A DNA stretch of 45,122 bases, the filler included, from Jimgerdemannia flammicorona (taxonomy: Eukaryota): NCBI GenBank assembly GCA_003990765.1. It is 2 parts of 2 records of this genome, joined end to end, with 100 filler letters (N's around TTAATTAATTAA, not from the genome) between each part and the next. Parts side by side here need not be neighbours in the genome. Positions count along the whole stretch, not along the records: positions 22,613 to 45,122 come from RBNJ01001259.1; 1 more part is not named here. One strand, given 5' to 3'. This document shows, piece after piece, positions 22,513-45,122 of this stretch. Position 1 is the first letter of the stretch. Each line of letters begins with the position of its first letter. The notes beneath the pieces are model-generated. The model saw only the letters and a list, made by a program, of their open reading frames with translations, was not told the origin of the DNA and did not search any database. The translations under genes and the position numbers were made by a program.

Positions 22513-22612
22513 NNNNNNNNNNNNNNNNNNNNNNNNNNNNNNNNNNNNNNNNNNNNTTAATTAATTAANNNNNNNNNNNNNNNNNNNNNNNNNNNNNNNN
22601 NNNNNNNNNNNN
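22513..22612. other. Artificial contig-joining spacer
   Basis: 44 N + TTAATTAATTAA (stops in all six frames) + 44 N = exactly 100 nt. Confidence 0.95.
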
Positions 22613-25800: not shown

Positions 25801-26012
25801 TTTAAACTGTTTCTAAGTCCAGTTGATAATGGTGATTGTTTAGGGTTCAAGGTGGTTAGGCATCTTCTGCTGCCTAAGATAGCTGATTAATCCATAGTAT
25901 AGCTTCTTATTCATGTTGAATAGTCTTGATGGGGGTGTTTCAGAGTGTTCTTGAGAGTGTATCAGCATTGGTATTGGTTTTTCCTGAGTGGTGCTTGACA
26001 GTATAGTTATAC
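22818..26012 (-). mobile_element. Family A copy A2, 3' half (RNase H end, IN, PPT, 3' LTR)
   Basis: Reverse complement of A1 ~4688-7888; integrase ORF 24887-25531; LTR 24354-22818; cut at 26012 by family B LTR. Confidence 0.92.
23259..24112 (-). pseudogene. LTR-embedded ORF of family A in copy A2
   Basis: ATG 24112; ORF pieces 24049-23759 and 23575-23309 are in the same frame and match the A1 protein up to ENLIDWRAPDLL; frame differs after that. Confidence 0.6.
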
Positions 26013-28059
26013 TGTAAGAGATTTGCTTTTTAGGGTAACTGTTATGTAGTTCTGGAAAGGTTTTCTGGATATTCTGGAATACCATTTTCTTATGGTCAAG
26101 ATCAATTTCATATGGAGTACGTCCTCTATGCTTATTGATTTCAAGATCAGGTTGACGTCTCAACCAAAGTCCTTTTTTGGACTAGTTCTGGATATTCAGA
26201 ATTTCCATATTTCAGGAAGTTCAAGAAACTAAGACCAGTTTAGTTGAATTGGCATATCACTGCAGACAATACCCAATTAGGAAATTTCGTGATGGGGTTA
26301 GGAGTAGGACCTAATGGGGAGTGGATTTACTTAAGAGTGGTTTGTGGGTTATTTGAATGGGTTTATTTGCTATTCATGATATTGCTATGAGTAGTTCTGT
26401 GAAGGGATATTGTGGGGAAGTATTCAGGAATATTCTTGTGTGTTCAAGTCTGAGATTCTAAGGTCTGGGGGAGGGGGTATTTATACTAGTGAGGGGCTAT
26501 CTGGACTATACTGAATATGAATGTAGCACTAAGTACCTTGCTGAGTCAGAACATAGTCACATAGTATAAGTGTGATCTAATATATCAAGAGATTGTCTGA
26601 CTGCTGAGTCAGTTCACAGTCATGTCATACAAGGCTACTCTAACTATACTATGACTGCTAGGCTATTTATGGTTTAGGCACTGTCTGGGTAGTCCTTGAT
26701 GACATCACCATCGATTGTATCATCTCTGATGAAGTAGTCATCTAGAAAGAGTAGTTCGTGGATTACTTCTCCTTGTTCTCTGAGGTAATAATATATTGGA
26801 ACTTCATCTCTATCCCACAGGATAGTATCATCTGTCTCATATGCTGGATAAGATGTTGGTGGGTGAAGGAGGGGTGCATCATCTTCACTTTCATCAGATT
26901 CACTATCTACATACCTTCTGTAGGTTACAGTACTATGAGTCACAGGGTTATAGTAATCTGGTGGCTGTGGTTCATTTTGCTCATACTCGGGTAGTGGAGT
27001 AGTTAGTTCAATGTCGAGGGTTGTCTGGAGGTACAGATCATGTTCTCCAGTCTCTTCATTGTAGTTGAAGTAATCGGGGGTGAACGCAGATTGGTATTCA
27101 TACCAGTGATCATTGTCCCAATAAGTCTCGTATGCTATTATGAATTGTTATAAGTTCATCGGCAAGGTTGGCAGTGTGATCAGGGTTGGCAGAGATCCTT
27201 GGCTAGAGGTCATGTCAGTGTCAGAGGGATCATTGTCTTCTGCTTCATCTTCATCAAAGTGAATTATATCATAGATGTCTTTCATAGCATATCCAACTTG
27301 GGGCATTTGCAGGATACAATCATTAGAGTGTGAGAAGGTTCTGTCTGTGGTTTCGACATACTCGAGGTACTTGTGGTTGAGTTCTTGTATCATATCGTTG
27401 ATTTGGCCATAGGACAGAGTAGCGACCATTTCACTGGTGGTAACTCGGAGGCACAGAATAATAGTACTGTACTCATAGAAGAGTTCTCAATGTTTGCGGG
27501 CGATGAGCTTCTGGTGTTGAGACATCTGGGTAATGTCTGTATCATGATGGTGTTTGACCATATCTTCTAGGAGGCAGCTGATCTGGTAGTAGCTTGAGAT
27601 TTGTCCAATTCGGTGGGCCTCGCTAAGCATGTTCAGAGCATTCCAATAGGCTTCCACAAAGTAGAGGGGTACTAGGCTATGGATATTCATGAGGGGCAGA
27701 GAGGGTGTGACTCAGTTGACAATGGCATTCCAAATGTCAGTTCAGATATGGGTATAGATCATAGTGGTCATGTTTGTGTATTTGGAAGTTGTAGTTGTTG
27801 GTTGTTTTGGTTATCTAATTTGATGTGTCTCAGTATTTGGTATATATGTATTTGGTCCTGATTGGTAAGATTCCATTTGTATAAATCTTGTGTTCTGTGA
27901 CTTCATATTGACTCAGCTTTGTGTGCTGTGACTTCGGTTTGACTCAGCTTTGTAATCAAGCAGGTGATTTCCAGATTTGTTCAGAGGTCGCATGTGATTC
28001 TAGTGGCTTGTTCAGAGGGTGACATGTAATTTCGGTGGCTTGGAGGTTGTGCACTTACA
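26013..28059 (-). repeat. 3' LTR of B (2047 bp)
   Basis: Direct repeat of 34357-36406; TATAAATA on minus strand at 26478-26485, AATAAA at 26362-26367. Confidence 0.95.
26674..27906 (-). pseudogene. LTR-embedded ORF of family B (~410 codons), 3' LTR copy
   Basis: ATG 27906; ORF pieces starting 27690, 27429, 26943 share one frame ending at TAA 26674. Confidence 0.75.
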
Positions 28060-28075
28060 ACTCTCCCCTTCTTAG
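28060..28075 (-). promoter_or_regulatory. Polypurine tract of family B
   Basis: CTAAGAAGGGGAGAGT abutting the 3' LTR; same motif at 38988 and 41020. Confidence 0.9.
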
Positions 28076-28279
28076 CTTTCAATGTCCTTATTGGGGCCTT
28101 CTAATTTTGTTCGGTAGTATAGAGAAAATAGGCTTGCTTTCCATTTTGCCATTTTTCCAGAGGGTCAGTATTCTTGTCTTGTTTTGCTGAGTTCTTGGTT
28201 TGGTCTCCAATAATTATAATATTCGGAAGGATAATATATGGATAGGTGCAGAGTATTTGGTTCTAATTGTTCAAGGAAT

Positions 28280-29560
28280 CATATTCCTGAACTAGGTCAG
28301 TAGCATTCTGGAGATTGGTCTTGAGTTCTCAGGTTATATTGTGGATCAGATAACCTTTTCATTTGACAAGGTACTCAGGGTGGCTCTTGTTGCCACATTT
28401 GTTGAGGATTTGTTCAACTTCGTACTCTTCTTGATTATTAATAATAACAGGTGTAGGTGGTTTAGTGGTCTGGTTTGGAAATAGCTTGTCATCATTCTCA
28501 TTGTATCGCTTGAGATGTTGAACATTAAAGACTGGGTGAATCTTAATGGTGTCTGGTAGTGCCAATTTGTAGGAGGTTAGAGAAACTTGTGCAATAACTT
28601 CAAATAGTCCAATGAACTTGCTGTTCAGCTTTGTAGATAGTCTGTACTTGAGGTTGTCAACTCGGTATCCTCTGATGTCCAGTAGAACTTTTTCTCCAAT
28701 ATCAAAGGTTTCTTCTCAGCAGTGTTGGTTAACATACTGTGACTATTGTTCTTGAGCTTATGATAAATTCTCAATGGCAATCTGGCTTAGATTGCACATT
28801 CAAAGTAAGAATTCTTCAATAGCTTCAACTGTAGAGAGTTCCTCAGTGGTTTGGATAAGTGTCAAAGGGGTGTTTGGGTTTTGTCTAGTATTGGCGAAGA
28901 ATGGGGTCATTCTGAGAGAGGCTTGCTTGCTATTGTTATAGGTAAACTCAACTGCGGTGAGGTATTCATGCCAGTCATCTTGTCTGTAGAAAACATAGTT
29001 CCTTAGCATTTGTTCTAGAGTTCAGATCATTCTTTCAGTTTGGCCATCAGTTTCTGGGTAAAAGGCTGTAGATAGTGCAAGTTTTGTTCCAAGGTGTGCA
29101 TAGAGGGCTTTTCAAAAATGGCTGGTAAATTTCGGGTCTCGATCACTAACTATGATCTTGGGAAGACCATGATAGCAGAAGATGTTGTCAAACAAGAGTG
29201 TGGCTATGTCTGGTGCTGTTGCAGTAGTGGTAGTAGGCACAAAGTGGGCTTGTTTACTGAGATAGTCCACAAAGATAACAATTGCATCTTTCCTGTTCTT
29301 GGTTCAGGGTAGTTGTACAATAAAGTCTATAAAGATTTGTTTCCAATTAGCAGATGATACTGGGATAGGGTGAAGTAAGCCAGGTTTTGCTAGTGTTGAG
29401 AACTTGTTTCATTGGTAGGTATCACAGGAAGTGATGTAGCTTTTGAGCTGATCTGCCATGTGGGGCCAATAGAAGTTTTGAGAGATAACTTTGTAACATT
29501 TATCAAATCCTAAATGTCCAGCTATAGGGGCATCATGATATTTGAATAGGATAGTTCTTT
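28280..29560 (-). pseudogene. B integrase plus chromodomain
   Basis: AGHLGFDK, SCDTYQ, TDGQTER, EFTYNNS, KFIGLF, IHPVFNV, QEEYEVEQIL..EYLVK*KGY. Confidence 0.9.
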
Positions 29561-29769
29561 GGAGGTCTCAGTTATTTGGGACATACAGTCTGTCTTTGTA
29601 GTAGATAGCATTGTCCTTCAGTTGGTATTGATGATACTGTATATGCTTGTTGGCATTGTTACTATTCAGGATTTCTCACAGTGCTTGAGCTTCCTTATCA
29701 TTGGCACATACTGTGATAATTTATTCCATGATAGAGTTTGTAACTAAGGTGAGAGTTTGGATAACCTCT

Positions 29770-31100
29770 TTGATTGGTGGTCTGGAGATTATATCGGCAA
29801 CAATATTTTCCTTGCCAGAGCAGTACTGGATTTTGTAGTCAAAGTTGGTGAGGACTTTCATCCATCTGGCTTGCTTTTGAGAAAGGGTAGCCTGTGTCTT
29901 GATATTGACTAATGATTTGTGGTCAGTCAATATGGTAAAGTGTGCTCCTTCTAGGTAGAGTCGCCATTTGATCAGAGTATCTACAATGGCTAGCATTTCC
30001 TTCTTATGGGTTGCATAATTAATTTCAGCATTATTGAACTTACAAGAGTAATAGGCTACAGGGTGTCCTTCTTATATGAGTACTGCTCCAAGGACTAGGT
30101 CAGAGGCATTAGTGGTAACTTCATATAGCAGTGCAGGGTTTGCCGCTTGAAGTACTGGAGTAGTTATCAGGGCATCCTTTAGTGCTTGAAAGGCAGTATC
30201 TTTCTCAGGTCCCCAAGTTACAAGATTGTTGAAGTCTTTCTCTTATTTTATGGTCCAGGGTTGTTCTTGTTTCTTATTATGCTTGGTCATTTGGGTGAGA
30301 GTGGTAGCAATTTTAGCAAAGTTGGCAACAAATTGCCTGTAATAGTTTGTTAATCCCAGGAATAACTGGAGGTCTTTCAGCTTCTTGGGTCTGGGCCAAT
30401 CCTTGATTGCAGAGATTTTGCTGGGGTCCACTTTGATTCTATTTGGAGTGACAATGTGTCCAAGGAATTGAATTTCTTTCAGGAGAAATTCGCACTTACT
30501 GAGTTTTGCAAAGAGTCAGTTTTCTTGGAGTTTCAGTAGTACTAGTTCAAGGTGTTCAAGATATTCCTCCAGGGTTTTGCTAAAGACTAGGATGTCATCA
30601 ATGTAGACAACAATGAATTTGTCCAGGTATGGATGCAGAATGGTATTCATCAGTATCTGGAAGGTTGCTGGAGCATTAGTTAAGCCAAAGGGCATAACCA
30701 GGAACTTAAAGTATCCATAGCGAGTTTGGAAGGCTGTCTTGTAGATGTCTTCTTCTTTCATGACAATTTGCCAGTAACTATTTTGCAGGTCAAAGGAGCT
30801 CATGAATTGTGGATTGGTAAGTCTATTAAATATTTCATCAATCCTTAGTAGTGGGCAATAGTTCTTGATGGTCTGTTCATTGAGATCACGGTAGTCAATG
30901 CACATTCACAGGTCTCCTCCTTTCTTGACAACAAATAGGACTGGTACACCATAAGGTGATATGCTGGGTCTGATGAATCCTTGTTCTAGGAGTTCATCAA
31001 TTTCTTTCTTGAGTGCATTGATTTCTCTTGGAGACATGTGGTAGATTGACTTGAAGGCTAGTTTGGCATCTGAGATAGTCTTGATGGCATAGTCTACTGC
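29770..31100 (-). pseudogene. pol: B reverse transcriptase and RNase H
   Basis: MCIDYRDLN, FDLQNSYWQI, MPFGLTNAPATFQ, YIDD (30594-30605), FTILTDHKSL, NIVADIISR. Confidence 0.93.
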
Positions 31101-31389
31101 TTGTTTAGGAGGTAGGCCTTTTGGGAGCTTTTTTAGGAATATGTCTCAAAATTTCTGGAGTAGTGGTCTGACATGGCTGTCAGCTTTGAAAAAATCTTCT
31201 TCAGAGTTCTCAGGTTCTCCTTTGGATGGATGGATGGAGATGGTGAAGAGCAGGCATTTCTTGGCCAATTTCTTAAGTTGTAGCTTGTTGATGTGGGTGA
31301 TCTTTGGTCCAGGGTCACCAGAATTAAGTGGGTCTTTTTCGCCTTGCAGTTTGAAGTTGTGGTGTCTCTTCTTGATGGTCAGAGAATGG

Positions 31390-31700
31390 TTTACCCAATC
31401 GATCATGGGGTTCTCTTGTTTTAACCATGGAGTCTCAAGGATGATTTCATTGTCAGGAAGTGGTACAATTTGAAGGGTAACATATACTAAGTAGTCGCCA
31501 ATTCGGATTGGTAGATTGTAGACTTCTTTGCTAATAACATATGAGGTCCCATCAGCTGTAGCAACTGCTTGAGTTTGCTATACTGGAGAGGTAAAGACCT
31601 TCAGTCTGTTGGCTGTCTCTTCATTGATGAAGTTGCCTGAGGCACCACTGTCTATCATAATCTTGACAGGTGCTCGGTTGACAAAAGCCTTAAGTGTGAG
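31390..31700 (-). pseudogene. B aspartic protease
   Basis: KIMIDSGASGNFI near 31630-31665; IILETPWL. Confidence 0.88.
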
Positions 31701-31924
31701 TAGTTTGTCTGATCCAATGGTGGTGATTTCAGTTGTAGGAGCTTTCTTTCTGTTGGTTCTTCTTTGAGCCAGTTCATTGACACAGAAGAAGCAATCATCA
31801 ATCATTCAGGAGGAGTATATTCTAATGCCATAGAGACATCAGCCACTTGGTACATATCCATCTTCGATTTTCTTATAGAATTGTTTTTCTTTGCTCATAG
31901 TAGGTTGGGCTGGGGCCTTGTTTG

Positions 31925-32340
31925 ATGAGCCGAATCCTTTAGATCCTCAGATGGTGGGCAGTAGTTCAGGGACTTCCTTGACTGTCAGGGTTGACTCGAT
32001 TTTTTCAAATAGGATCTGGGTAATGCAGAAACCAATAGGGATCTTGAAGGGTATCCAACTGTAGTTTCAGATGAGGACAATAATTTCGCCTATATAATCC
32101 TTATCAATGACTCCTCCTTCTACTGAGAGTCCTTTCAATGCTAGGCTGCTGCAACAGCATATTCTTCCAACATGTCCTTCAGGGATATGGATGCTGATTC
32201 CTGTGTAGACTTGTTTGACTTCTTGGTTGGAAACTGTAGCTTCTTCCACTGTATACAGGTCATATCCAGCTGCTTTCTGACTTCCTTTGGTTGGGGCTTT
32301 AGCAGTTTGTCTTAACTTGACAAAGTCCAGTGTTCTGGTG
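31925..32340 (-). pseudogene. dut: B dUTPase domain (between gag and PR)
   Basis: AAGYDLY, VYTGISI, SSLALKG, GGVIDKDYIGEIIVLI, ITQILF, GSKGFGSS. Confidence 0.92.
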
Positions 32341-32344
32341 GTCA

Positions 32345-34340
32345 GGTTATTGAGGTGGTGCAGAGTGGTAACAGTTGCTCTTGTTGCTGTTCAGGGTTTT
32401 TAGTTAGGGCAGGTACTGGCCATATGTCCTGTCTTTCGGCAGTAGAAGCATGCTCTGCTTCTTCGAAGTTCATTCCTTTCACCTTCAGTAAGTTTTTTGA
32501 AGATACTTGGTTGGGTAGGTTCATGATTTCTGAGTATCCAAGAGGTGGATGTAGAGGGAGCTCGGGATGCTTCATGCTTGGATTCTTCTTTCTTGGTCCA
32601 AGTCTTTTCCTTGTTGTTAAATTGTCTTCAGGGCAGAATTGGTCCAGCTGTTAGGATTTGCTTGACCATAGTCTTGATTCTTGCCAGGTACCACTGTTGG
32701 TGGTTGCAACCAACTGGGCAGTCTTGTTCTCAGATTTTCTAGTAAGCCATTCAGGCAGGGCATCAAATAAGTGGTCTGCTCTTGTACCATTTCATGCTTC
32801 ATCATTGGCAATGTATCCTAGGCCCACAGTGTTCAGGAGTGACTTGAGTTTTATACAGAAGGTTTTGAATTCTTCTTTACCATATACATCAAATTTGAGG
32901 TTGCAGAGTTTTACTTGAGATTTGGCAATCATGGTTTTGCTGTAGTATTGAGCAATCATGAGTTGTTTGAGTCCAGGGGCTGCAGGATGGGCTCTATATC
33001 CTGGGGCATTGTTTGCTGCATTCTGAGCAACTACTGCAGGTCAGGTATCCCATGTGAGGGGTTTTTCAGGAAGGATTCACCACCATTCTTCGGCAGGTCC
33101 TTGGAAGAATGTAACAACTTGGCAGACATAGGCTATAGTGGTAGCAAAGAGTTGTTCCAGAGTGTGGTCTTGATTGTTTGTCAGAATGCAGTCAGCAACT
33201 TGCTCATTAGTCCATTGATTGGCTTTGAAGTTGGTGTCAACTACACTAATGAAGCTTTGGACTTCTTGTGCAGTACCATTGAAGGTAGGTAGACTCAGAT
33301 TTTTTATAGATCGGGTCTGTTCAGCTAAGGCAGTAATGGTTGCTGCCATTATAGCTACTTGGGCTGTGAGATCAAGAATCTGTTGGTTTGCCATATTGTT
33401 TGCTGGAGGTAGTTGGACTGCTAGTAGTGGTATTACTAGTACTACTTGAGGTACTGGTGCAGAGTGTGATAGGGTTCTTTGGGTCTGTGTAAGTTGCTGG
33501 AGTAGTAGTTGTGGATCTGGAGTAAGGGCTTGATAGATAGCTATTTGTTGTTGTGTAGGTGTATTCTGTCCTGATGGGAGTGCGTCTCCTTTAGTAGTGT
33601 ATCCAGTATCAAATTCAGTGAGATACTCCTCCTCCTCTTCAGTTTGATCCCTGTATAATTGGGTTTGCTTGGCATTGAAGTAGACAGAATCAGTTGTATA
33701 TCTAATTTCAGATGGACTTAATTCAAAGTCAAGTTCAGGTTCAGTATTGGTTTCAGATTCAGGTAGGGCTGTAGTAGGACCTGCTTCAGGTTCAGGGTCA
33801 GGTAGTTGATGAAGGGTTTCTCTTGCTTCTTCTTTAAGAATATGGCAGGCCTTGCTGTTCTGAAATCAGTAGTATAGTGTGGTCTTGGTCCTGGTATGGT
33901 GAAAGTTGGTAGAGTTGAGCCACTTGGCTACAGAGGCTTGGGCTTCATGGGGAACTAAGGCTAGGAAGACTGCTGCTGGTTGTCCTAGATCGCTCGGATT
34001 TGTGGAGCTGACAAAACTCTTGTTGAGAAGAGTAAAGAAGGCTTCAATAAGACCTTCTTCATCTTGACTTGCTGGGTGTAGTGCAAGAAGTTCGGTGAAT
34101 AGGGTTTCTCCTATTTGCTGATTTAATCGGAGTACTTCTTTCTTTGAATGAAGTTTGTCCCACTTGTTGTAAGTGTGGAGGTCAAATTGTCCTTATACAT
34201 CAGGTTCAATTCTCTCCAGATTGTCGGATGGTTCAGGATAAATTCCAGTTCAGAGGTTGGGCTTTATACTAACTTGTAGGAATTCTCAGAAGGGTTTGTA
34301 GTGGGGTAAGGAAGCATCTTGAAGTGGAATTGGATTGTAA
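32345..34340 (-). pseudogene. gag: B gag with long in-frame N-terminal extension
   Basis: LPTFNGTAQEVQSFI capsid start (ORF 33394-33077); CFYCRKTGHMASTC knuckle at ~32410-32452; frame stays largely open upstream to the PBS. Confidence 0.8.
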
Positions 34341-34353
34341 ACTGCTGCTACCA
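34340..34353 (-). promoter_or_regulatory. Primer-binding site of family B (initiator tRNA-Met type)
   Basis: TGGTAGCAGCAG 3 nt after the 5' LTR; same in B'2 ending at 44409; TGGTAGC matches the complement of tRNAi-Met 3' ends. Confidence 0.8.
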
Positions 34354-34356
34354 AGT

Positions 34357-36406
34357 TGTAAGAGGTTTGCTTTTTAGGGTAACCATTATGTAGTTCTGGA
34401 AAGATTTTCTGGATATTCTGGAATACCATTTTTTTATGGTCAAGATCAATTTCATATAGAGTATGTTCTCTATACTTATTGATTTCAAGATCAGGTTGAC
34501 ATCTCAACCAAAGTCCTTTTTTGGACTAGTTCTAGATGTTCAGGATTTCCATATTTCAGGAAGTTCAAGAAACTAAGACCAGCTTAGTTGAATTGGCATA
34601 TTGCTGCAGACAATACCTAATTAGCAAATTTCATGAAGGGGTTAGAAGTGAGACCTAACAGGAAGTGGATTTACTTAAGAGTGGTTGGTGGGTTATTTGA
34701 ATAGATTTATTTGCTATTCATGATATTGCTATACTAGAAGTAGTTGTATGAAGGAATATTGTAGAGAAGTATTCAGGAATGTTCTTGTGTATTCGAGTCT
34801 GAGATTCTGAGGTCTGGGGGAGGGGATATTTATACTAGTGAGGGGCTATCTGGACTATGCTGAATATGGATGTAGCACTAAGTGCTTTGCTGAGTCAGAA
34901 TGTAGTCACATAGTACAAGTGTGATCTGATATGTCAAGAGATCGTCTGACTGCTGAGTCAGTTCACAGTCACATTGTACAAGGCTAATCTAACTATACTA
35001 TGACTGCTAGGCTATTTATGGGTTTAGGCACTATCTGAGTAGTCCTTGATGACATCACCATCGATTGCATCATCTCTGATGAAGTAGTCATCTAGAAAAA
35101 GTGGTTTGCAGATTACTTCTCCTTGTTTGCTGAGGTAATAATATATTGGAACTTCGTCTCCATCCCACAAGATGGCGTCATCTGTCTCATATGCTAGATA
35201 AGGTATTGGTGGGTGAAGGAGGGGTGCATCATCTTCACTTTCATCGGATTCACTGTCTGCATATCTTCTATAGGTTACAGCACTATGAGTTGCAGGGTTG
35301 TAGTAAGCTGGTAGCTGTGGTTCATATCACTTATACTCAGGTGGTGAAGTGGTTAGTTCAATCTCGAGAGTTGTCTGGAGGTACAGGTTGTGTTCTCTGA
35401 TCTCTTCATTGTAGTTGAAGTAATCAGTAAATGCAGGTTGGTATTCATACCAGTAATCATTATCCCAATAAGTCTTGTATGCTGTTATAAATTGTTGTAA
35501 GTTCATTGGCAAGGTTGGCAGTGTGATCAGGGTTGGTAGAGATCCTTGGCTAGAGATCATGTTGGCATCAGAGGAATCATTGTCTTCTGCTTCATCTTCA
35601 TTGAAGTGAATTATATCATAGATATCCTTCATGATATATCCAACTTGGGGCATTTGCAGGATATGATCGTTGGGGTGTAGGAAGGTTCTGTCTGTGGTTT
35701 CAACATACTCGAGATACTTGTGGTTGAGTTCTTGTATCATGTCATCAATTTGGCTATAGGACAGGGTAGCAACCATTTCACTGGTAATAACTCAGAGGTG
35801 GGAAATAATGGTACTATACTCGTAGAAGAGTTCTCAATATTTGCGGGTGATGAGCTTCTGGTGTTGAGACATCTGGGTGATGTCTGTATCATGGTAGTGT
35901 TTGACCATGTCTTCCAGGAGGCGGCCGATCTGGTAGTAGCTTGAGATTTGTCCAATTCGGTAGGCCTTGCTAAGCATGTTCAGAGCATTCCATTGGACTT
36001 CCATGAAGTAGAGGGGTGCTAGGCTGTGGATATTCATGAGGGGTAGAGGGAGTGTGGCTCTATTGACAATGGTATTCCAAATGTCAGCGCAGATATGGAT
36101 ATAGATCTCAGTGGTCATGTTTGTGTGTTTGGAAGTTATAGTTGTTGTTTGTTTTGGTTCTCTTATTCGATGCGTTTTGGTGCTTGGTATATATATATTT
36201 GATCCTGATTGGTAAAATTCCATTTGTGTAAATCTTGTGTTCTGTGACTTCATATTGACTCAGCTTTGTGTGCTGTGACTTTGGTTTGACTCAGCTTCGT
36301 GATCAAGCAGGTGATTTCCAGATTTGTTCAGAGGTCGTGTGTGATTTCAGTGGCTTGTTCAGAGGGTGACATGTAATTTCGGTGGCTTGGAGGTTGTGCA
36401 CTTACA
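34357..36406 (-). repeat. 5' LTR of B (2050 bp)
   Basis: TGTAAG...CTTACA; direct repeat of 26013-28059. Confidence 0.95.
35024..36253 (-). pseudogene. LTR-embedded ORF of family B (410 codons), 5' LTR copy
   Basis: ORFs 36253-35834 and 35776-35327 are in frame and continue to TAA 35024 (1230 nt). Confidence 0.75.
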
Positions 36407-37480
36407 CCTTAAATAAGCTTAAGATATAGTTCTTGAACAAAACTCAGAGCTAATAAACTCAACCAGAATATATTCTAAATTGTATAAATATATCACTAAT
36501 ACTATCTCTAAGAATACTATTATAGAAAATCATCTATTTAGTAAAAAATTACAATATAATAAACAAATTCAACATAATAAGAGTGAGAAAGAATAAGAAA
36601 TAATAATTACCCATCTGGTCAAAAAAAACACTACCTTATCTTACTAAAAGAGAAGAAGACCAAAAGTGAAATAATACAGTTAAAGAAGTATGTCAGATTT
36701 ATAATATAACTTCTCATCTAATACTGAACCAGATCTACCATCTATAAGGAGTAAGTAAATGAGATTTAACTCAAATATAAAAGGATGAGATATATTTACT
36801 ATATAAAATATATCTGTAATAAATCTGTAAACTATACTATAAATACTACTATATTATGAATACTATGAATAATAAATGCTACAAATATTATATATAAAAA
36901 CTATATAAATCTCAACTTATGTCAATAAAGATTTAGTTTCAATAATAATTTATAAACTTTTATATTATATATAATTTGCTATTGAATATATACTCCTAAT
37001 ACTACCATATACTTCTTGAATGAAAATCAGTTACAATTATATATAATGCCAAGTTTGTATAACTGTATTTTTGGTCTATATATTTGGCTATTTAGTTTAA
37101 CTATATATTTACAAATAAAATATATATTTAAAAAAGTTCTTCTTATAATATATGATCTGCATACTTATTTACTAAATATAAATAAAAAGAATATATATTC
37201 AATCTATCTACTAAGTTCTTTCTTACTGAATCATATTCCTCAAACAAGAGTTACATATATACTATATAAATAATTATATTTATAAATATAATATTGAACT
37301 ATCTAGTCTATATAGTAATAGCTATTTCTGTTTTACAATTATGAGAGACTATGTTTTTAGTACTATATCTATTATATTATATTACTTCAAGTATATAAGT
37401 TAATAGACTTAGTAATTTAAAGAAAAGACAAACTTAGATAAAAAGATATTTATTTATATTTTATCTTATCTCAAACTACT

Positions 37481-39512
37481 TATAAGAGAGTTACTTGTTA
37501 GAGTAACCATTACATAGTTCTGGAAGGATTTTCTGGAAGTTCTTGATGTTCTGAAAGACTGTTTTCTTAAGGTCAAGATCAATTTCATATAGAGTATATC
37601 CTCTACACTTATTGATTTTAAGATTGAGTTGATATCTCAACCAAAGTCCTCTTTCAGACTAGTTCTGGATGTTCAGGATTTTCTATATTTTAGGAAGTTC
37701 AAGAAACTAAGACTAGCTTAGTTGAATTGTCATATTACTGCAGATAATACCCAATTAGGAAATTTTGTGATGAGTTAGAAGTGGGATCTAACAGGGAGCA
37801 GATTTACTTAAGAGTAGTTTATGGGTTATTAAATAGGTTTATTCACTATTTATAATATTGCTATACTAGGAGTAGTTATATAAAGAGATATTGTAGAGAA
37901 GTGTTCAGAAATATTCTTATATATTTGAGTCTATTCAAGTCTGAGATTCTGAGGTCTGGGAGAGTGGATATTTATACAGTGAGGGACTATCTGGACTATA
38001 CTGAATATGGATATAGTACTTAGTACCTTACTGAGTCAGAATATAGTTATATATGTAGTATAAGTGTGATCTGACATATCAAGAGATCATCTGACTGCTA
38101 AGTCAGTTTATAGTCATATTATATAAGGCTAATCTAACTATACTATGACTGCTAAGCTATTTATAGATTTAGATGCTATCTGGTTAGTCTTTGATAACAT
38201 TACTATTAATGACATCATCTCTAGTAAAGTCTGAGCAGTTTTCTGACTTCTGATATTATTAGTTTCAAAGGTGTTATCACCTCTGTCTCTTATAAAATTA
38301 AGACTATCCTTAGTGATAGTGGTTATACAAGAATAACAGGTCTTGGTTCTCTTTTTTTTTTTTAGACTACTAATGTATTTATAAGAACTGACTATTCTTG
38401 TCTAGAGTAAGGGCTCCCAATATCATGGCTGGGGGTTCAAATCTCTCAGAAATGATATTTTCTATAATCTGAGGCAATTTCTAGTAGTAATATCTGTCAT
38501 GTAGATGGGCTTGAGATTAGTTTTGACAATGTTAGCTTTCTTGAGTTCAGATGAAGCATCTGTTATTCTTTAATAGAGATGATATAGATAAAGTGAACAG
38601 AGTTGTTCAAATGTATTTTGCTTCTGCTAAGTAATGAGATCTTTGTATAATTGCAGTGTATCTTGGTCTTGGGTTAATAAGTGCAGTTTATGAACCTTTG
38701 GTAGATAAGAGAGATTCTTCTCATCTTAGTTTGAGTTTGGTACTTTAGTTTTCTTTTGTAATAGTATGGTTTATCAAAACTAGTTATAGAGGTATAGAGT
38801 CAGTCTTATAGTTATAGTACTTCTTCTGATATTCTTATATCTTGGCAGTAGGTTTTTGTGCTTGCTGACATATTTTATGTAACTAGGTGATCTCTTCAGT
38901 AACTTGTTTTGTAGTCTCACATGTGGTTTCCAAATTAGTTCTGAGGATGATATGTGATTTTGGTAGCTTGGAGGTTGTATACTTATAACTCTCCCCTTCT
39001 TAGCTTTCAACACTCTCATCAAGGCCTTCTAATTTAATCTAGTGTTGTTGTACCATTTGGATGATTCTTATAGCTGTATTTGTTAAGGATTTGTTTAACT
39101 TTGTATTCTTCTTGGTCATTAATAATAACAGATATAGGTGGTTTTGCAGTTTGGTTCAGAAATATATCTCAGGCTTTCTGAGGTAAGAGTCTGATATGGT
39201 TGTCAACTTTGGAAAAGTCTTCTTCAAGGTTTTCAGATTCTCCTTTAGATGGACAGATAGAGATAGCAAAGAGAGGACATTTCTTGGTCAATTTCTTAAG
39301 CTATAGCTTATTGATATAAGTGATCTTTGGTCCAGGGTTACTAGAACTAAGTGGGTCCTTTTTGCCTTACAGTTTGAAGTTGTGGCATCCTTTCTTGATA
39401 GTTAGAGAATGGTTTATCCAATTGATCATAAGGTTCTCTTGTTTTAACCATAGGGTTCTAAGGATGATTTTATTGTTAGGAAGTAGTATAATCTAGAGTA
39501 TAACATATACTC
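37481..39512 (-). mobile_element. Non-autonomous B' copy 1 (3' LTR 37481-38987, PPT, deleted internal part), cut by B' copy 2
   Basis: LTR TATAAG...CTTATA of 1507 bp; chromodomain start joined to post-protease linker near 39160. Confidence 0.88.
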
Positions 39513-42500
39513 TATAAGAGGATTACTTGTTAGAGTAATCATTACATAGTTCTGGAAGAGTTTTCTGAAAGTTCTGGATATTCTAGAAGACTATTTTCTT
39601 AAGATCAAGATCAATTTCATATGGAGTACATCTTCTATACTTATTGATTTCAAGATCAGGTTGATGTCTCAATCAAAGTCCTTTTTTGGACTAGTTCTGG
39701 ATGTTCAGGATTTTCCATATTTCAGGAAGTTCAAGAAACTAAGACCAGCTTAGTTGAATCAGCATATCACTATAGACAATACCCAATTAGGAAATTTTGT
39801 GATGGGATTAGGAGTGGGACCTAATGGAGAGTAGATTTACTTAAGAGTAGTTTGTGGGTTATTAATAGGTTTATTCACTATTTATGATATTGCTATACTA
39901 GGAGTAGTTATGTAAAAGGATATTGTAGAGAAGTGCTCAGGAGTTGTGTTCAGAATATTTAAGTATTTAAGTCTTTAAGTCTTTAAGTCTTCAAGTCTAA
40001 GGTCTGGAGAAGAGAGTATTTATACTAGTGAGGGACTATCTAGGCTATACTGAATATGGATGTAGCACTTAGTGCCTTGCTGAGTCAGAATACAGTTACA
40101 TAGTACAAGTGTGATCTGACATATCAAGAGATCATCTGACTGCTGAGTCAGTTCACAGTCATATTATATAAGGCTAATCTAACTATATTATGACTGCTAA
40201 GCTATCTATAGATTTAGATACTATCTGGTTAGTCTTTGATGACATCACTATTGATGACATCATCTTTGACAAAGTCTAAGCAGTTTTCTGACTTCTGATA
40301 TCATCAGTTTCAAAGATATCATTACTTCTATTTCTTGCAAGATTAAGACTGTCCTTGGTGGTAGTGGTTGTACAAAGATAACAGGTCTTGATTCTCTTTT
40401 TTTTTTGGACTTCTGGTACATTTGTGAGGACTGGCCATCCTTGTCTAGAGTGAGAGTTCTCAATGTCATGGCTGGGGGTTCAAACCTCTCAGAAATGATA
40501 TTTTCTATAATTTAAGGTAATTTCTAGTAGTAATATCTATCATATAGATGGGCTTGAGATTGGTTTTGACAATGTCAGCTTTTTTGAGTTCAGATGAAGT
40601 ATCTGTTATTCTCTAATAAAGGTGATACAGATAGAGCAAACAGAGTTATTCAAATACATTTTACTTCTGCTAAGTAATGAGGTCTTGTATAGTTGTAGTG
40701 TATCTTGATCTTTAGTTGATAAGTACCTTTGATAGATGAGATAGGGTTCTTCTTGTCTTGGTTTGGTTTTGGTACTTTCAGTTTCTTTTTGTAATAGTAT
40801 AATATACCAAACTAGTTATAGAGATTCAGAGTCAGTCTTATGGTTGTAGTACTTCTTCTAGTATTCTTATATCTTGGCAATAAGTTCTTATACTTGCTGG
40901 TATATTTTGTATAACCAGATGATCTCTTCAGTAACTTGTTTTATAGTCTCACATATGGTTTCCAAATTGGTTTTGAGGATGACATGTGATTTTGGTAGCT
41001 TGGAGGTTATATGCTTATAACTCTCCCCTTCTTAGCTTTTGACATCCTCATCAAGACCTTCTAATTTGATCTAGTATTGTTGTATCATTTGGATGGTTCT
41101 TGTGGCTGTATTTGTTGAGAATTTGTTCAACTTTATATTCTTCTTGATCATTAATAATGACAGGTGCAGGTAATTCTGTGGTTTAGTTCAGAAATGTGTC
41201 TCAGACTTTCTGGAGTAAGAGTCTGACATAGCTGTTAACTTTGGAAAAGTCTTCTTCAAAGTTCTCAGATTCTCCTTTGGATGGACAGATGGAGATGACA
41301 AAGAGAGGACATTTCTTGGCCAATTTCATGAGCTGTAGCTTGTTGATATAAGTGATCTTTGGTCCAGGGTCACTAAAGCTAAGTGGGTTCTTTTTATCTT
41401 ACAGTTTGAAGTTATGGCATTCTTTCTTGATGATCAGAGAATGGTTTATCCAATTGATCATGGGGTTCTCTTATTTCAACCATGGAGTTCCAAGAATGAT
41501 TTCATTGTCAGGAAGTGGTACAATCTGGAGGATAATATGTACTCAGTAGTCACCAATTTGGAAGGGCAGGTTGCAGACTTCCTTGCTAATAACATAAGAG
41601 GTTCCATCAGCTTTGGCAACTGCTTGGGTTTGTTGTACTAGAGATGTCAGGACCTTAAGTCTGTTGGCTGTTTCTTCATTGATGAAGTTGCCTGAGGCAC
41701 CACTGTCTATCATAATCTTGATAGGTGCTCAGTTGACAAAAGCTTGAAGTATAAGTAGTTTGTCTGATCTAATGATGGTGATTTCAGTTGTAGGAGTTTT
41801 CCTTCTATTGGTTCTTCTTTGAGCCAGTTCATTGACACAAGAGAAGTAATCATCAATCATTCAGAAAGAGTACATTCCAATGTCATGAGAGCATCAGCTA
41901 CTTAGTATATATCCATCTTTGATTTTCTTGTAGAATTATTCTTCTTTACTTGTAGTAGGTTGGGCTGGGGCCTTATTTGATGAGCCAAATCCTTTGGATC
42001 CTCAGATGGTAGGTAGTAGTTCAGGGACTTTCTTGACTGTCAGGGTTGACTCAATTTTCTCAAATAGGATCTGGGCAATATAGAAACCAATGGGGATCTT
42101 GAAGGGTGTCCAATTGTGATTTCAGATGAGGACAATAATTTCGCCTATATAATCTTCATCAATGACTCTTATTTCTACTGAGAGTCCTTTCAATGCTAGG
42201 CTGCTGTGATAGCATATTCTTCCAACATGTCCTTCAGGAATTTGGATACTAATTCCTATGTAGACTTACTTGACTTCTCAGTTGGAAACTATAGCTTCTT
42301 CAGCTACATACAGGTTATATCTAGCTGCCTTTTGACTTCCTTTAGTTGGGGTCTTGGTAGTTTGTCTTAACTTAATAAAGTCCAGTATTCTGGTGATCAG
42401 GTTATTAAGGTAGTGCAGAGTAGTAATAGTTGCTCATGTTACTGTTTGGGGTTTTTAGTTAGAGCAGGCACTGGCCATGTATCCTGTCTTTTGGCAACAG

Positions 42501-45056
42501 AAACATACTCTGCTTCTTCAAAGTTCATTTCTTTCTTCTTTGGTGAGTTTCTTGAAGGTACTTGACTGAGTGGGTTCATGATTTCTGAGTGTCCATGAGG
42601 TGGATGTTGAGAGAGCTCAGGATGCTTCATGCTTGGGTTCTTCTTTCTTAGTCCAAGTCTTTTCCTTGTTGTTGAATTATCTTTGGGGCAGAATTGGTCC
42701 AGCTATTAGGATTTGCTTGAGTATAGTCTTGATTCTTGCCAGGTACCATTGTTGGTGATCACAACCAATTAGGTGTCCTTGTTCTCAGATTTTTCTTATA
42801 AGTCATTCAGGTAGTACATCAAATAGATAGTCTGCTCTTGTACCATTTTGTACTTCATCATTGGTAATATATCCTAGGCCAATAGTGTTCAGGAGTAACT
42901 CAAGTTTTGTACAGAAAGTTTCAAATTCTTTCTTACTATATATATCAAATTTGAGGTTATAGAGTTTTACTCGAGATTTGGCAATCATGGTTTCACTGCA
43001 GTATTGAGCAATTATAAGTTATTTCAGTTCAGGGGCTGCAGGATGGACTCTATATTCTGAGGTATTGTTTGTTGCATTTTGAGCAACTACTGTAGGTCAG
43101 GTATCCTATGTATGTGAGGGGTTTTTCTGGAAGGGTTTGTCACCATTCTTCAGCGAGTTCTCTAAAGAATATAACAACTTGACAGATATAGGCTGTAGTG
43201 GTAGCAAAGAGTTGTTCCAGAGTATGGTCTTGATTGTTTATCAGAAGATAGTTCACAACTTACTCATTAGTCTATTTATTGGCTTCAAAGTTGGTATCAA
43301 CTATACTAATAAAGCTTTGGACTTCTTGTATAGTACTATTGAAGATAGATAGGCTCAGATTTTTGATAGGTTGGGTCTGTTCAGCTAAGGCAGTAATGGT
43401 TGCTATCATTATTGCTACCTGGGCTATAAGGTCAAGAATCTGTTGGTTTGTCATGTTATTTACTGGAAGTGGTTGGACTACTGGTAGTGGTGTTACTGGT
43501 ACTACTTGAGGTACTGGTGCAGAGTGTGATGGGGTTCTTTGGATCTGTGTAAGTTGCTGGAGTAGTAGTTGTGGGTCTAGAGTAGAGCTTGATAGATAGC
43601 TGTCTATTGCTGTATAGGTGTATTATGTTCTAATGGAGATACATCTCCTTCAGTAGTATATCTGAGATTGAATTCACTGAGATACTCCTCCTCCTCTTTG
43701 ACTTAGTCCCTAGTTGGGTTTGCTTGGCATCAAAGTAGACAGAATCAGTAGTATATCTGATTTCAGATGGACTTAATTCAAAGTCAAGTTCTGGTTTAGT
43801 ATTGGTTTCAGGTTCAGATAGAGCTATAGTAGAGCCTACTTCTAGTTTAGGATCAGATTGTTGGCAAAGAGTTTTCCTTACTTCTTTCTTAAGAATTTGG
43901 TAGGCCTTATAATTCTGGAATTGATAGTATAATATAGTCTTGGTCCTGGTATGGTGAAAGTCAGTGGAGTTGAGCCACCTGGCTACAGAGGCTTGGGCTT
44001 CATGAAGAACTAAGGCTAGAAAGACTGCTGCTGGTTATCCTAGATTACTCAGATTTGTAGAGCTGACAAAACTCTTGTTGAGAAGAGTAAAGAAGACTTC
44101 TATAAGACCTTTTTCATTTTGACTTGCTGGGTGTAGTGCAAGAAGTTCAGTGTATAGAGTTTCACCTATTTGCTGATTTAACTGAAGTACTTCTTTCTTT
44201 GAATGAAGTTTGTCCCACTTGTTACAGGTGTGGAGGTCAAATTGTCTTTGTATATCAGGTTCAATTTTCTCCAGATTATCAGATAGTTTGGGATAAATTC
44301 CAGTTCAGAGGTTGGGCTTTATATCAACTTATAAAAATTTCTCAGAGAGATTTGTAGTGGGGTGAGGAAGTGTCTTAAAGCAGAATTGAATTGTATACTG
44401 CTGCTACCAAGTTATAAGAGAGTTATTTGTTAGGATAACTATTACATAGTTCTGGAAGAGTTTTCTGGAAGTTCTGGATATTCTGAAAGACTGTTTTCTT
44501 AAGGTCAAGATCAATTTCATATAGAGTACATTCTCTATACTTATTGATTTTAAGATTGAGTTGACATCTCAACTAAAGTCCTTTTTCGGACTAGTTCTGA
44601 ATGTTTAGGATTTTCTGTATTTCAGGAAGTTCAAGAAACTAAGACCAGCTTAGTTGGATCAGCATATCACTGCAGACAATATCCAATTAGAAAATTTTGT
44701 GATGTGATTAGGAGTGGGACCTAATGGAGAGTGGATTTACTTAAGAGTGATTTGTGGATTATTAAATAGGTTTATTTGCTATTCATGATATTGCTATACT
44801 AGAAGTAGTTGTGTAAAAGGATATTGTAGGGAAGTGCTCAGGAGTTGTGTTTGGAATGTTCAAGTCTTCAAGTCTTCAAGTTTTCAAGTCTGAGGTCTAG
44901 GAGAGAGGGTATTTATACTAGTGAGGGGCTATCTGGGCTATACTGAATATGGATATAGTACTTAGTACCTTGCTGAGTCAGAATACAGTCATATAGTACA
45001 AGTGTGATCTAATATATCAAGAGATCATCTGACTGCTGAGTCAGTTTATAGTCATG

Positions 45057-45058
<2 letters not shown>
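39513..45058 (-). mobile_element. Non-autonomous B' copy 2 (3' LTR 39513-41019; gag-dUTPase-PR; 5' LTR from 44413, truncated)
   Basis: Internal region colinear with B 31140-34356; RT/RH/IN absent; PBS and PPT present. Confidence 0.9.
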
Positions 45059-45113
<55 letters not shown>

Positions 45114-45122
45114 CTTTTTTTT
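45059..45122 (-). repeat. Poly(T) run, probable poly(A) tail of a further retroposon inserted in the B' LTR
   Basis: LTR consensus breaks at GTCATGTC|TTTT; same pattern as 14935 and 10842; element body is outside the window. Confidence 0.55.

Follow-up and report, generated by a model that had tools for sequence, protein, structure and literature searches.

B' is probably a non-autonomous subfamily of a Ty3/gypsy retrotransposon, formed by one replacement in an unconstrained U3. It emerges from a comparison of the two LTR types, B and B', found in a 45,122-nt stretch of Jimgerdemannia flammicorona DNA (GCA_003990765.1), which is the whole window analysed here and of which positions 22,613-45,122 come from RBNJ01001259.1. 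All copies compared lie within this window and number five, two of type B and three of type B' (Bp1, Bp2 and the cut copy Bp3), and both elements lie on the minus strand. The coordinates of the features are collected in Table 1.

Table 1. Features of the B and B' elements, in positions of the window.
Feature	Position	Strand	Remarks
B element 3' LTR	26013-28059	minus	2047 nt; polypurine tract before the LTR on the minus strand
B U3 frame, 3' LTR	26677-27909	minus	5 stops
B internal region	28060-34356	minus	gag and Pfam domains, all stop-broken
B integrase C-terminal SH3	28362-28715	minus	Pfam
B RNase H	29724-30071	minus	Pfam
B RT	30519-30905	minus	Pfam
B protease	31581-31805	minus	Pfam
B dUTPase	32070-32390	minus	Pfam
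B element 5' LTR	34357-36406	minus	2050 nt; TG...CA; primer binding site next on the minus strand
B U3 frame, 5' LTR	35027-36259	minus	411 codons, 3 stops
B U3 coding core, 5' LTR	35027-35776	minus	last 250 codons
B-specific U3 interior, 5' LTR	35086-36356	minus	about 1272 nt; body of the U3 ORF
Bp1, B' LTR (3' LTR of outer insertion X)	37481-38987	minus	1507 nt
Bp1 ORF-tail remnant	38169-38231	minus	alignment
Bp1 U3 interior	38232-38939	minus	708 nt
X internal region, 3' end	38988-39512	minus	525 nt; stops exactly at the Bp2 LTR end
Bp2, B' LTR (3' LTR of inner insertion Y)	39513-41019	minus	1507 nt; blastn
Bp2 AATAAA	39870-39875	minus	in the shared block
Bp2 TATA box	40017-40024	minus	TATAAATA; in the shared block
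Bp2 ORF-tail remnant	40214-40276	minus	DFVKDDVINSDVIKD*PDSI*; directly 3' of the breakpoint
Bp2 U3 interior (filler)	40277-40971	minus	695 nt
Bp2 shared 5' tip of U3	40972-41019	minus	about 48 nt
Y internal region	41020-44412	minus	without an equivalent of B 28483-31131
Bp3, B' LTR (5' LTR of Y)	44413-45055	minus	primer binding site at the inner edge; only the shared block visible
Poly(A) run (poly(T) on the plus strand)	45056-45122	minus	takes the place of the rest of Bp3 to the window end

When Bp2 is used as the query, blastn against the window returns Bp1 at 84.7% identity over 1527 columns and Bp3 at 88.5%. Positions 3-763 of Bp2 align with both B LTRs at 81.8-81.9% (26015-26735 and 34359-35085), and positions 1463-1496 align with both at 88%; a word size of 7 lengthens this short shared block to about 48 LTR bases and takes in the polypurine tract as well. 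The two LTR types (1507 nt in B', 2047-2050 nt in B) have one terminal block of 763 nt and an opposite one of about 48 nt in common, and the sequence between the shared blocks measures 1272-1275 nt in B and 695-708 nt in B'. The common ends and unrelated middles claimed by the original prediction are thereby recovered both by blastn and in the alignments, but they have to be read in the reverse direction. Because the elements lie on the minus strand, the “first 0.7 kb” is the 3' part of the LTR, which comprises promoter-R-U5 with the last 21 ORF codons, the TATA box and the AATAAA signal, and the “last 45 bp” form the 5' tip of U3, presumably the end recognised by integrase. The TATA box is a predicted promoter element, as judged from its position and its conservation in all five copies. 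The variable part of the LTR is the distal U3, and the difference between the two types is confined to it, more than about 250 nt upstream of the TATA box. Over 650 nt of the shared sequence, identity is 84.5-87.4% between B and B' and 87.3% between the two B' insertions. The blocks common to both types outline the minimal LTR required by the machinery, composed of a 48-nt tip and a 760-nt promoter-R-U5 block.

The Pfam domains of B follow the Ty3/gypsy order protease - RT - RNase H - integrase between two LTRs, with a dUTPase upstream of the protease and a Tf2-1 SH3 domain at the integrase end as additional domains. The two LTRs of B are 89.5% identical over 2056 columns, and no target-site duplication is found at B, whose two flanks differ. 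The polypurine tract AAGAAGGGGAGAG precedes three of the window LTRs, and the primer binding site TTGGTAGCAGCAG follows two of them; the LTR termini read TGTAAG...CTTACA in B and TATAAG...CTTATA in B', the changes being transitions. B is an autonomous-type Ty3/gypsy (Metaviridae) retrotransposon that is dead in this copy. A protein search with its RT returns two JGI proteins at 90-91% identity, and the remaining matches are generic plant and algal gypsy sequences at 40-61%. The gag protein finds no match at near or longer lengths, and a protein-guided locus search with it reveals no relative in the metagenome contig collection.

The 2-kb LTR of B carries an accessory protein gene within its U3. 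This layout is assigned to B because the frame exhibits codon periodicity (p = 3.6e-10) and a positive codon log-odds (+0.17) and because an independent homologue, P0001, exists. P0001 is the only real match to the B U3 ORF in an exhaustive search of 1.84 billion proteins (E = 5.5e-57, 63% identity), and it retains the ORF tail down to the final residue. The 410-codon ORF of the original prediction is a frame that spans 411 codons and contains three stops in the 5' LTR and five in the 3' LTR, one of which is common to both. The well-supported coding core is formed by the last 250 codons, of which the last 21 fall in the block shared with B', and the unbroken stretch of the 3' LTR frame (26677-27147, 157 aa) is 63% identical to P0001. 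The interior of the 5' LTR U3 additionally contains two pairs of 31-32 nt tandem repeats. A U3 coding frame of this sag-like layout is present only in B and not in B'.

The two B' LTRs on which the original prediction was based do not form one pair; they appear to be the 3' LTRs of two separate nested insertions, an outer X and an inner Y. This assignment rests on the exact LTR end at which the X sequence is interrupted and on the LTR identities, which rank as nesting predicts (89.4% vs 87.3-87.4%). The internal region of Y is 85% identical to B 31132-34356 (the gag, dUTPase and protease side), and the counterpart of B 28483-31131, which encodes RT, RNase H and the integrase core, is missing from the B' interior. 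The X fragment is 86% identical to Y without indels and exhibits the same RT-RNase H-integrase deletion junction. B' is accordingly non-autonomous in type: it contains neither RT nor integrase and has LTR termini, primer binding site, polypurine tract and promoter in common with B. The occurrence of the same deletion junction together with the same LTR type in both X and Y identifies B' as a propagated form.

Beyond the window, related sequence is found in X1, the only public run listed for it, a soil metagenome that has a 0.10 share of the words and may not be independent of the sample from which the window derives. In X1, 3459 contigs exhibit at least 80% likeness and all 30 bins are covered, the summed contig depth not being a copy number. 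At the six listed variant sites in the B' interior, 11-17 contigs each carry a variant, all unlike the window copy, so that several variants are present in this run. Among the loose ends listed for X1, a minority that leaves 131 others beyond the list, none is reported as a joint at the two B' breakpoints, and no RNA runs with this sequence are listed. A degenerate 30-nt LTR pattern that matches 5/5 window copies has no match in the metagenome and viral contig collections. One match of this pattern in a bacterial symbiont genome was dismissed as chance, being an AT-only stretch with no blastn similarity to the window.

The difference in the middle of the LTRs is a true replacement rather than decay. 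Scored by Smith-Waterman on both strands, the B and B' interiors reach 12-17, and 100 shuffles per comparison average 11.9-14.6 (z between -0.14 and 1.66), whereas the same scoring yields 445 on the shared block, and searches of the window with the B' interior (blastn at word size 7 and tblastx) return no match outside the B' LTRs. That the B' interior goes back to the B interior through extreme decay or rearrangement, a case that the original prediction had named as refuting it, is hardly credible. The copies do bear a transition load that could be read in this way (182 transitions and 14 transversions between Bp1 and Bp2), but the flanks of these copies still match B at 82-87% identity, and gradual decay is ruled out because flanks at 85-87% identity enclose interiors at the random level. 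Moreover, tblastx, like tblastn with P0001, finds nothing in B' beyond a short ORF tail. The 3' breakpoint of the filler is 21 codons short of the B ORF stop, and B' aligns codon for codon, without indels, to this tail, in which it has an in-frame stop; P0001 matches B' only at residues 229-247. Because B' keeps the ORF tail, which is conserved in P0001, it derives from a gene-bearing LTR that lost the gene body, and the retained tail points to a single loss by replacement in a gene-bearing ancestor rather than to a repeatedly refilled slot. The reverse direction, in which the B' U3 is ancestral and the gene was gained by B, is very unlikely. Nothing specific speaks for it beyond the fact that a shorter form could in principle be older, whereas the B ORF enters the shared block by 21 codons whose stop-bearing remnant is present in B', the tail is also kept in the 63%-identical P0001, and the absence of pol domains marks B' as a derived form.

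The origin of the filler itself bears on two further readings. The filler is non-coding. On the sense strand, that of Bp2 is 41% A and 14% G; the three frames of Bp1 contain 25, 9 and 24 stops, of which 16, 6 and 14 are common to Bp1 and Bp2, and with at least 9 stops in every frame, neither copy is open. The open frame for which the original prediction had wanted B' to be tested is absent, 6 stops of the best frame being common to both copies. The peptide quoted there is present in Bp2 only, the same stretch of Bp1 containing two stops, and the “basic patch plus CxxC”, whose KKK is a translated A10 run, is not conserved in the other copy. No Pfam family is found in the filler, and a protein atlas search with the 83-aa Bp2 frame gives no usable match. 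However, the stop-poor sense frame of Bp1 contains 9 stops, against 23.4 +/- 4.6 under a first-order Markov null (P about 0.0005), and the filler could be what remains of another coding sequence and would then speak for a second cargo. On this reading, U3 is a cargo bay, the functional modules of which (a gene in B, one that is regulatory or a decayed coding sequence in B') are swapped between families by template switching of co-packaged RNAs; in its favour, the variable part lies exactly between two constrained blocks and the B' form was amplified. We consider it unlikely. Six of the nine stops in the stop-poor frame are common to both insertions, the filler lacks 3-base periodicity (p = 0.24), and its best codon log-odds is negative (-0.22). 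The pN/pS of this frame between Bp1 and Bp2 takes the values 0.36 and 0.86 in its two blocks, not consistently low; the measure carries little information, as counts are small and, with the bias towards transitions, every frame gives less than 1. The filler is unlike any other element of the window, it contains no tandem or repeated motifs of the enhancer kind, and only two states are seen in the window, one clearly derived from the other. It is more doubtful that the distal U3 of this fungal-type gypsy clade would be a true cargo bay and the stop-poor filler the wreck of a second, unrelated U3 gene; if so, LTRs would act as vehicles for orphan-gene turnover.

The filler might instead be a nested insertion of an unrecognised mobile element, or of a fragment of one, into an ORF-less LTR and carried along by retrotransposition, which seems improbable. 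A short direct repeat (7 of 8 nt) bounds the Bp1 filler, reading CTCAGAAC at the 5' and CTCAGAC at the 3' junction, and could be either a target-site duplication or microhomology; there is also an A12-13 run in the filler, the base composition of which differs from that of the B interior. The A-run, however, is situated 118 nt from the 3' junction and is not terminal, the filler ends exhibit neither terminal inverted repeats nor TG..CA, and no second copy occurs in the window outside the B' LTRs. A SINE or tRNA-derived origin was rejected, as no tRNA or SINE-like gene is found in the filler and a single B-box-like match (one mismatch) is at the chance level: the whole window contains 4 where 1.49 are expected, a number reached by 5 of 100 shuffles. 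The two Rfam matches in the window are below threshold (E 0.14-0.23) and lie outside the filler, which has no match in the window, Rfam, Pfam or the public collections reached. A degenerate tandem array of about 204 nt, as suggested by a repeat search, was also discarded, the autocorrelation not exceeding that of shuffles.

Under the preferred reading, a single replacement, B' kept the cis-acting parts (the 48-nt U3 tip, polypurine tract, primer binding site, TATA promoter, R, U5 and the gag side) and lost the RT-RNase H-integrase block, and it would be copied by B-type proteins that mobilise it in trans. The accessory gene body in U3 would have been replaced once, most likely in one founder copy, by about 700 nt of unrelated, non-coding, A-rich filler, either because reverse transcription of U3 switched to a non-homologous template or through a DNA-level deletion with filler. 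One round of retrotransposition would then place the filler in both LTRs, and further insertions would spread it. The ends would be shared and the middle free because the distal U3 is the part of the LTR without a replication function. As for the proposal of the original prediction that U3 acts as an exchangeable slot, the difference does lie wholly in the distal U3, it is a true replacement, and the B' form spread by retrotransposition; but only two states are seen in the window, just one of which is a gene, and the B' interior is not open. The pattern does not show a dedicated exchange slot.

LTR subfamilies that differ in U3, and non-autonomous derivatives, are already well described, and in this respect little here is new. 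B' may nevertheless be regarded as a natural deletion of the U3 gene that still spread, which suggests that the protein is not needed in cis: B-type elements would provide it in trans, or transposition would do without it. Many unrelated LTR interiors in the genome, if found, would make the idea of a cargo bay interesting.

Three known systems invite comparison. In the betaretrovirus MMTV, sag is an ORF in the U3 of the LTR, and in natural variants, T-cell-tropic ones such as type B leukemogenic virus among them, an altered U3 truncates this gene and the virus still replicates. B and MMTV may be alike in having a gene that lies wholly in U3 and natural variants with a rearranged U3; MMTV, however, belongs to the retroviruses of vertebrates and has an unrelated sag protein, and enhancer function is affected by the changes in its U3.

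In the account of LTR partners given in PMC9744471, autonomous and non-autonomous elements are recognised by primer binding sites that resemble each other and by the conservation of both LTR termini and promoter, all of which are seen in the alignments of B and B', and LTR parts are described as moving between subpopulations by template switching or gene conversion. In the wheat examples described there (the RLC_Angela subpopulations, and RLG_Wilma with Sabrina/WHAM), the partner without pol keeps the primer binding site, termini and promoter motifs, as B' does. B and B' are much closer to each other than these wheat partners (85% internally and 82-87% in the shared LTR blocks), and, unlike them as they are described there, B and B' differ in the LTR by one sharp replacement that removes a gene.

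A parallel in U3 is offered by the Tnt1 superfamily of Solanaceae, in which, according to PMC1838419, Tnt1A/B/C, Retrolyc1A/B and Retrosol have the coding region and the remainder of the LTR in common and differ in U3, the hypervariable module of the LTR (“modular evolution”). B and B' exhibit the same modularity, in that R, U5 and the coding parts are alike while U3, alone among the LTR parts, differs. The Tnt1 elements, as presented in that source, are Ty1/copia elements of plants with short regulatory U3s that were shown to differ in expression, whereas B and B', known here from their sequence, are of the fungal Ty3/gypsy type and set a 1.3-kb gene-bearing U3 against 0.7 kb of filler.

In the right half of the window lie LTR retrotransposons of the gypsy type, which run along the minus strand. 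The LTRs of element B, a Ty3/gypsy element, begin with TGTAAG and end with CTTACA; the primer binding site TTGGTAGCAGCAG comes after the 5' LTR, and the polypurine tract AAGAAGGGGAGAG lies upstream of the 3' LTR. The Pfam domains appear on the minus strand in the order dUTPase, aspartic protease, reverse transcriptase (RT), RNase H and a Tf2-1-type SH3 (integrase C-terminus), and each is interrupted by stops. Read along the element, the B LTR has three parts: a tip of 48-50 nt, an interior of 1272-1275 nt and a block of ~730 nt that contains the TATA box (LTR position ~1575), AATAAA (~1696) and U5. The flanks of B (26008-26012 versus 36407-36411) show no recognisable target-site duplication. 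The dUTPase domain lies between gag and protease, and a JGI protein with 91% RT identity carries protease, RT and dUTPase domains. The integrase core of another element lies just to the left of B, and two 44-N runs, 12 bases apart in a GC-rich stretch, read as gaps or masked letters, fall within the letters that join the two records.

Coordinates of the features in the window
Feature	Position	Strand	Detail
44-N runs	22513-22556; 22569-22612		
Integrase core of another element	24890-25600	minus	
Element B	26013-36406	minus	LTRs 2047 and 2050 nt, 89.5% identical
31-32 nt units, two different, each x2	27888-28042; 36235-36301		
dUTPase domain of B	32070-32390	minus	E 1.7e-20
Sense frame in B interior	36259 to 35027	minus	411 codons
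First 161 codons of B frame	35777-36259; 27430-27909	minus	
B' LTR Bp1	37481-38987	minus	full; 84.7% identical to Bp2
Stop-poor Bp1 frame	38141-38986	minus	9 stops
B' LTR Bp2	39513-41019	minus	full
8-nt unit arrays	39958-39998; 44859-44891	plus	x5.1; x4.1
Internal region of Y	41020-44412	minus	85% identical to B 31132-34356
B' LTR Bp3	44413-45055	minus	cut; 88.5% identical to Bp2
T run	45056-45122	plus	at least 64 T

In blastn, the B' LTR Bp2 matches both B LTRs over its plus-strand positions 3-763 (~82% identity) and again over its last 34-48 nt, which bears out the original prediction that the first ~0.7 kb and the last ~45 bp are shared. Because the elements lie on the minus strand, the former is the promoter-R-U5 side and the latter the U3 tip at the 5' end. 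What varies is the distal U3, up to ~250 nt upstream of the TATA box. Between the shared blocks, B' has 695-708 nt that were described as unrelated to B and present in both full B' copies, and this description holds. Aligned locally, on both strands and with both copies of each, the B' and B interiors score 12-17, where the shuffle means are 11.9-14.6 (z -0.14 to 1.66), whereas the shared LTR block scores 445 under the same scheme. Elsewhere in the window, blastn (word size 7) and tblastx match the B' interior to the other B' copy only. The shared 650 nt are 84.5-87.4% identical between B and B' and 87.3-87.4% identical between the two B' insertions. An interior at random level between flanks of such identity indicates replacement rather than divergence, and a B' interior that is a decayed B interior, one of the outcomes that would have undone the prediction, is excluded.

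The B' LTRs belong to a non-autonomous, propagated lineage. The region from 37481 to 45122 is laid out as LTR, 525 nt of 3' interior, LTR, 3.4 kb of interior and LTR. This is most simply read as the insertion of a complete B' element, Y (Bp3, interior, Bp2), into the interior of an older B' element, X, both in the same orientation. Bp1 would be the 3' LTR of X, and the other half of X would lie beyond the window end. The 525 nt between Bp1 and Bp2 are the 3' end of a B'-type interior with the same deletion junction; they are 86% identical to the other copy without indels and stop exactly at the terminal base of Bp2. The LTR identities (Bp2-Bp3 89.4%, Bp1-Bp2 87.3%, Bp1-Bp3 87.4%) agree with the insertion of Y into X in that Bp2 and Bp3 are the closest pair. 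On the simplest reading, two separate integrations therefore carry the B' interior in their 3' LTRs. In Bp3 it is unreadable, since 643 nt of shared block are followed by poly(A) of at least 64 nt up to the window end; this run, seen as T on the plus strand, stands in place of upstream Bp3 and could be a poly(A) retroposon tail, a homopolymer expansion or an assembly break. The interior of Y lacks an equivalent of B 28483-31131 (RT, RNase H, integrase core) as well as a shorter piece near the polypurine tract. B' has inserted more than once. It retains the U3 tip, polypurine tract, primer binding site, promoter, R and U5, together with the gag side of its interior, and has neither pol nor the U3 gene body. 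Additionally, an 8-nt unit (TTTAAGTC / TTCAAGTC, plus strand) is repeated just downstream of the TATA box in both Y LTRs and in neither Bp1 nor B; the expansion is specific to Y and lies close to where transcription presumably starts.

The 410-codon ORF that had been predicted in the B interior is present as a frame of 411 codons, although it is not open: the 5' and 3' LTR copies contain 3 and 5 stops, respectively. The frame nevertheless exhibits 3-base periodicity (chi-square p=3.6e-10; 4e-11 to 6e-13 for the last 250 codons alone) and codon log-odds of +0.12 to +0.17, as trained on the gag-pol pieces of B itself. The first 161 codons are weaker coding sequence, with 2 and 4 stops, a codon score of ~0 and periodicity of p=0.004 and 0.08. 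A search of 1.84 billion representative proteins with the unbroken 157-aa C-terminal piece returns two matches at E<=0.001, of which only P0001, an outside homologue of 247 aa from a 998-bp contig, is convincing (E 5.5e-57, 63% identity). The first residue of P0001 corresponds to the Met with which the last 250 codons of the B frame begin; the true U3 gene may comprise ~250 codons, or else P0001 may be cut by its contig.

The position of the breakpoints bears on the direction of change. The 3' breakpoint lies 21 codons upstream of the stop codon of the B frame, and downstream of it B' aligns to B without indels, with the tail DF(T/V)(R/K)DDVINS(N/D)VIKD*PDSI* in B' and (D/Y)YFIRDD(A/T)IDGDVIKDY(S/P)DSA* in B. 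P0001 ends with the same tail (...NYFIRDDVIDDDLIAEYPDSI), which identifies it as a conserved part of a real protein. In tblastn searches of the window, the match of P0001 to both B LTRs extends over residues 1-246 at 58-59% identity, whereas in Bp1 and Bp2 it is confined to residues 229-247. B' therefore derives from a gene-carrying LTR and has lost all of the U3 gene but the tail. The opposite direction, in which B gained the gene, is unlikely, given this conserved tail in B'. The distal U3 of B also opens with two different 31-32 nt units, each present twice; a single copy of the first is left in B', and the 5' breakpoint directly follows it.

What replaced the gene is not an open frame of the kind that had been looked for in the B' interior, as the three sense frames of Bp1 contain 25, 9 and 24 stops over 277 codons, of which 16, 6 and 14 are stops in Bp2 as well. 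The predicted peptide with a basic patch and a CxxC motif is found in the stop-poor Bp2 frame; however, its KKK is a translated A10, and the Bp1 counterpart has two stops. The interior lacks 3-base periodicity (chi-square p=0.24), codon log-odds are negative in all of its frames (best -0.22, trained on the gag-pol pieces of B), and no Pfam family is found in three open pieces or in the read-through (X at stops, E<=1). In the stop-poor frame, pN/pS between the B' copies is not consistently low, with values of 0.36 and 0.86 in the two blocks. The nine stops of this frame in Bp1 are fewer than the 23.4 +/- 4.6 of a first-order Markov null, and of 2000 simulated sequences a fraction of 0.0005 had nine stops or fewer in their lowest-stop frame. 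The interior may be what is left of an older coding fragment, or the low count may be chance; six stops common to Bp1 and Bp2 indicate that it was not an open gene at the last common ancestor of X and Y. As for a nested element, neither terminal inverted repeats nor LTR-like ends are found, nor are tandem repeats or hidden periodicity inside the interior; it contains no tRNA and no Rfam match, and its single B-box-like motif is at chance level. A near-repeat at the two junctions in Bp1 (CTCAGAAC and CTCAGAC) fits template-switch microhomology as well as a target-site duplication.

The B' interior appears to exist in more than one sequence variant and outside the window locus as well. Contigs of the public run X1, listed as soil metagenome and containing a tenth of sampled words, were compared with 39400-44400 at >=80% likeness; 3459 contigs cover all 30 bins (236 at >=99%, 840 at 95-99%, 1664 at 90-95% and 719 below 90%), counts in which contig depth does not equal copy number and X1 is possibly not independent of the window's source. 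Each of six listed variant sites in the B' interior is covered by 11-17 contigs, all with a letter unlike the window copy, which indicates several variants; a listed site in the shared LTR block has 28 contigs and those in the internal region 3-31. Two of the listed sites, 40266 and 40278, lie on either side of the 3' breakpoint, each with a contig that extends at least 43 or at least 31 letters beyond. Among the joints listed for X1, a listing that does not extend to 131 further loose ends, none falls at the breakpoints of the interior. At 142 sites the window copy has A against G in the X1 contigs, and at 75 sites T against C. Across all pairs of LTR copies in 26013-45055, the differences are nearly all transitions (189 to 17, 182 to 14, 67 to 1), and most C/T differences are followed by A, as are 56 of 101 in the B LTR pair. 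This RIP-like or deamination-type decay accounts for the breakage of every frame in the region.

The replacement would have been a single event in one founder copy, through either a non-homologous template switch during U3 copying or a DNA-level deletion with filler. As the one U3 at the RNA 3' end is the source for both LTRs, the next replication cycle would have put the replaced U3 into both. B-type proteins would mobilise B' in trans. The shared ends and different middle would reflect constraint on the ends rather than a dedicated slot, and the proposal that U3 is an exchangeable gene or enhancer slot exceeds the evidence. B' is a subfamily, lacking both the ORF and pol, of a gypsy element that bears a U3 gene, and it has kept a remnant of the gene's tail. 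It is of value mainly as a natural case in which the U3 gene was deleted and the element still spread.

Mouse mammary tumour virus carries a gene in U3 and has natural variants with rearranged U3. In the Tnt1 superfamily, U3 is described as the hypervariable, modular part of the LTR, in which subfamilies differ while the rest is conserved (PMC1838419). A wheat study describes non-autonomous LTR elements that share LTR termini, promoter motifs and the primer binding site with an autonomous partner, with LTR parts moving between subpopulations by template switching or gene conversion (PMC9744471). The variation between B and B' is of this already known sort.
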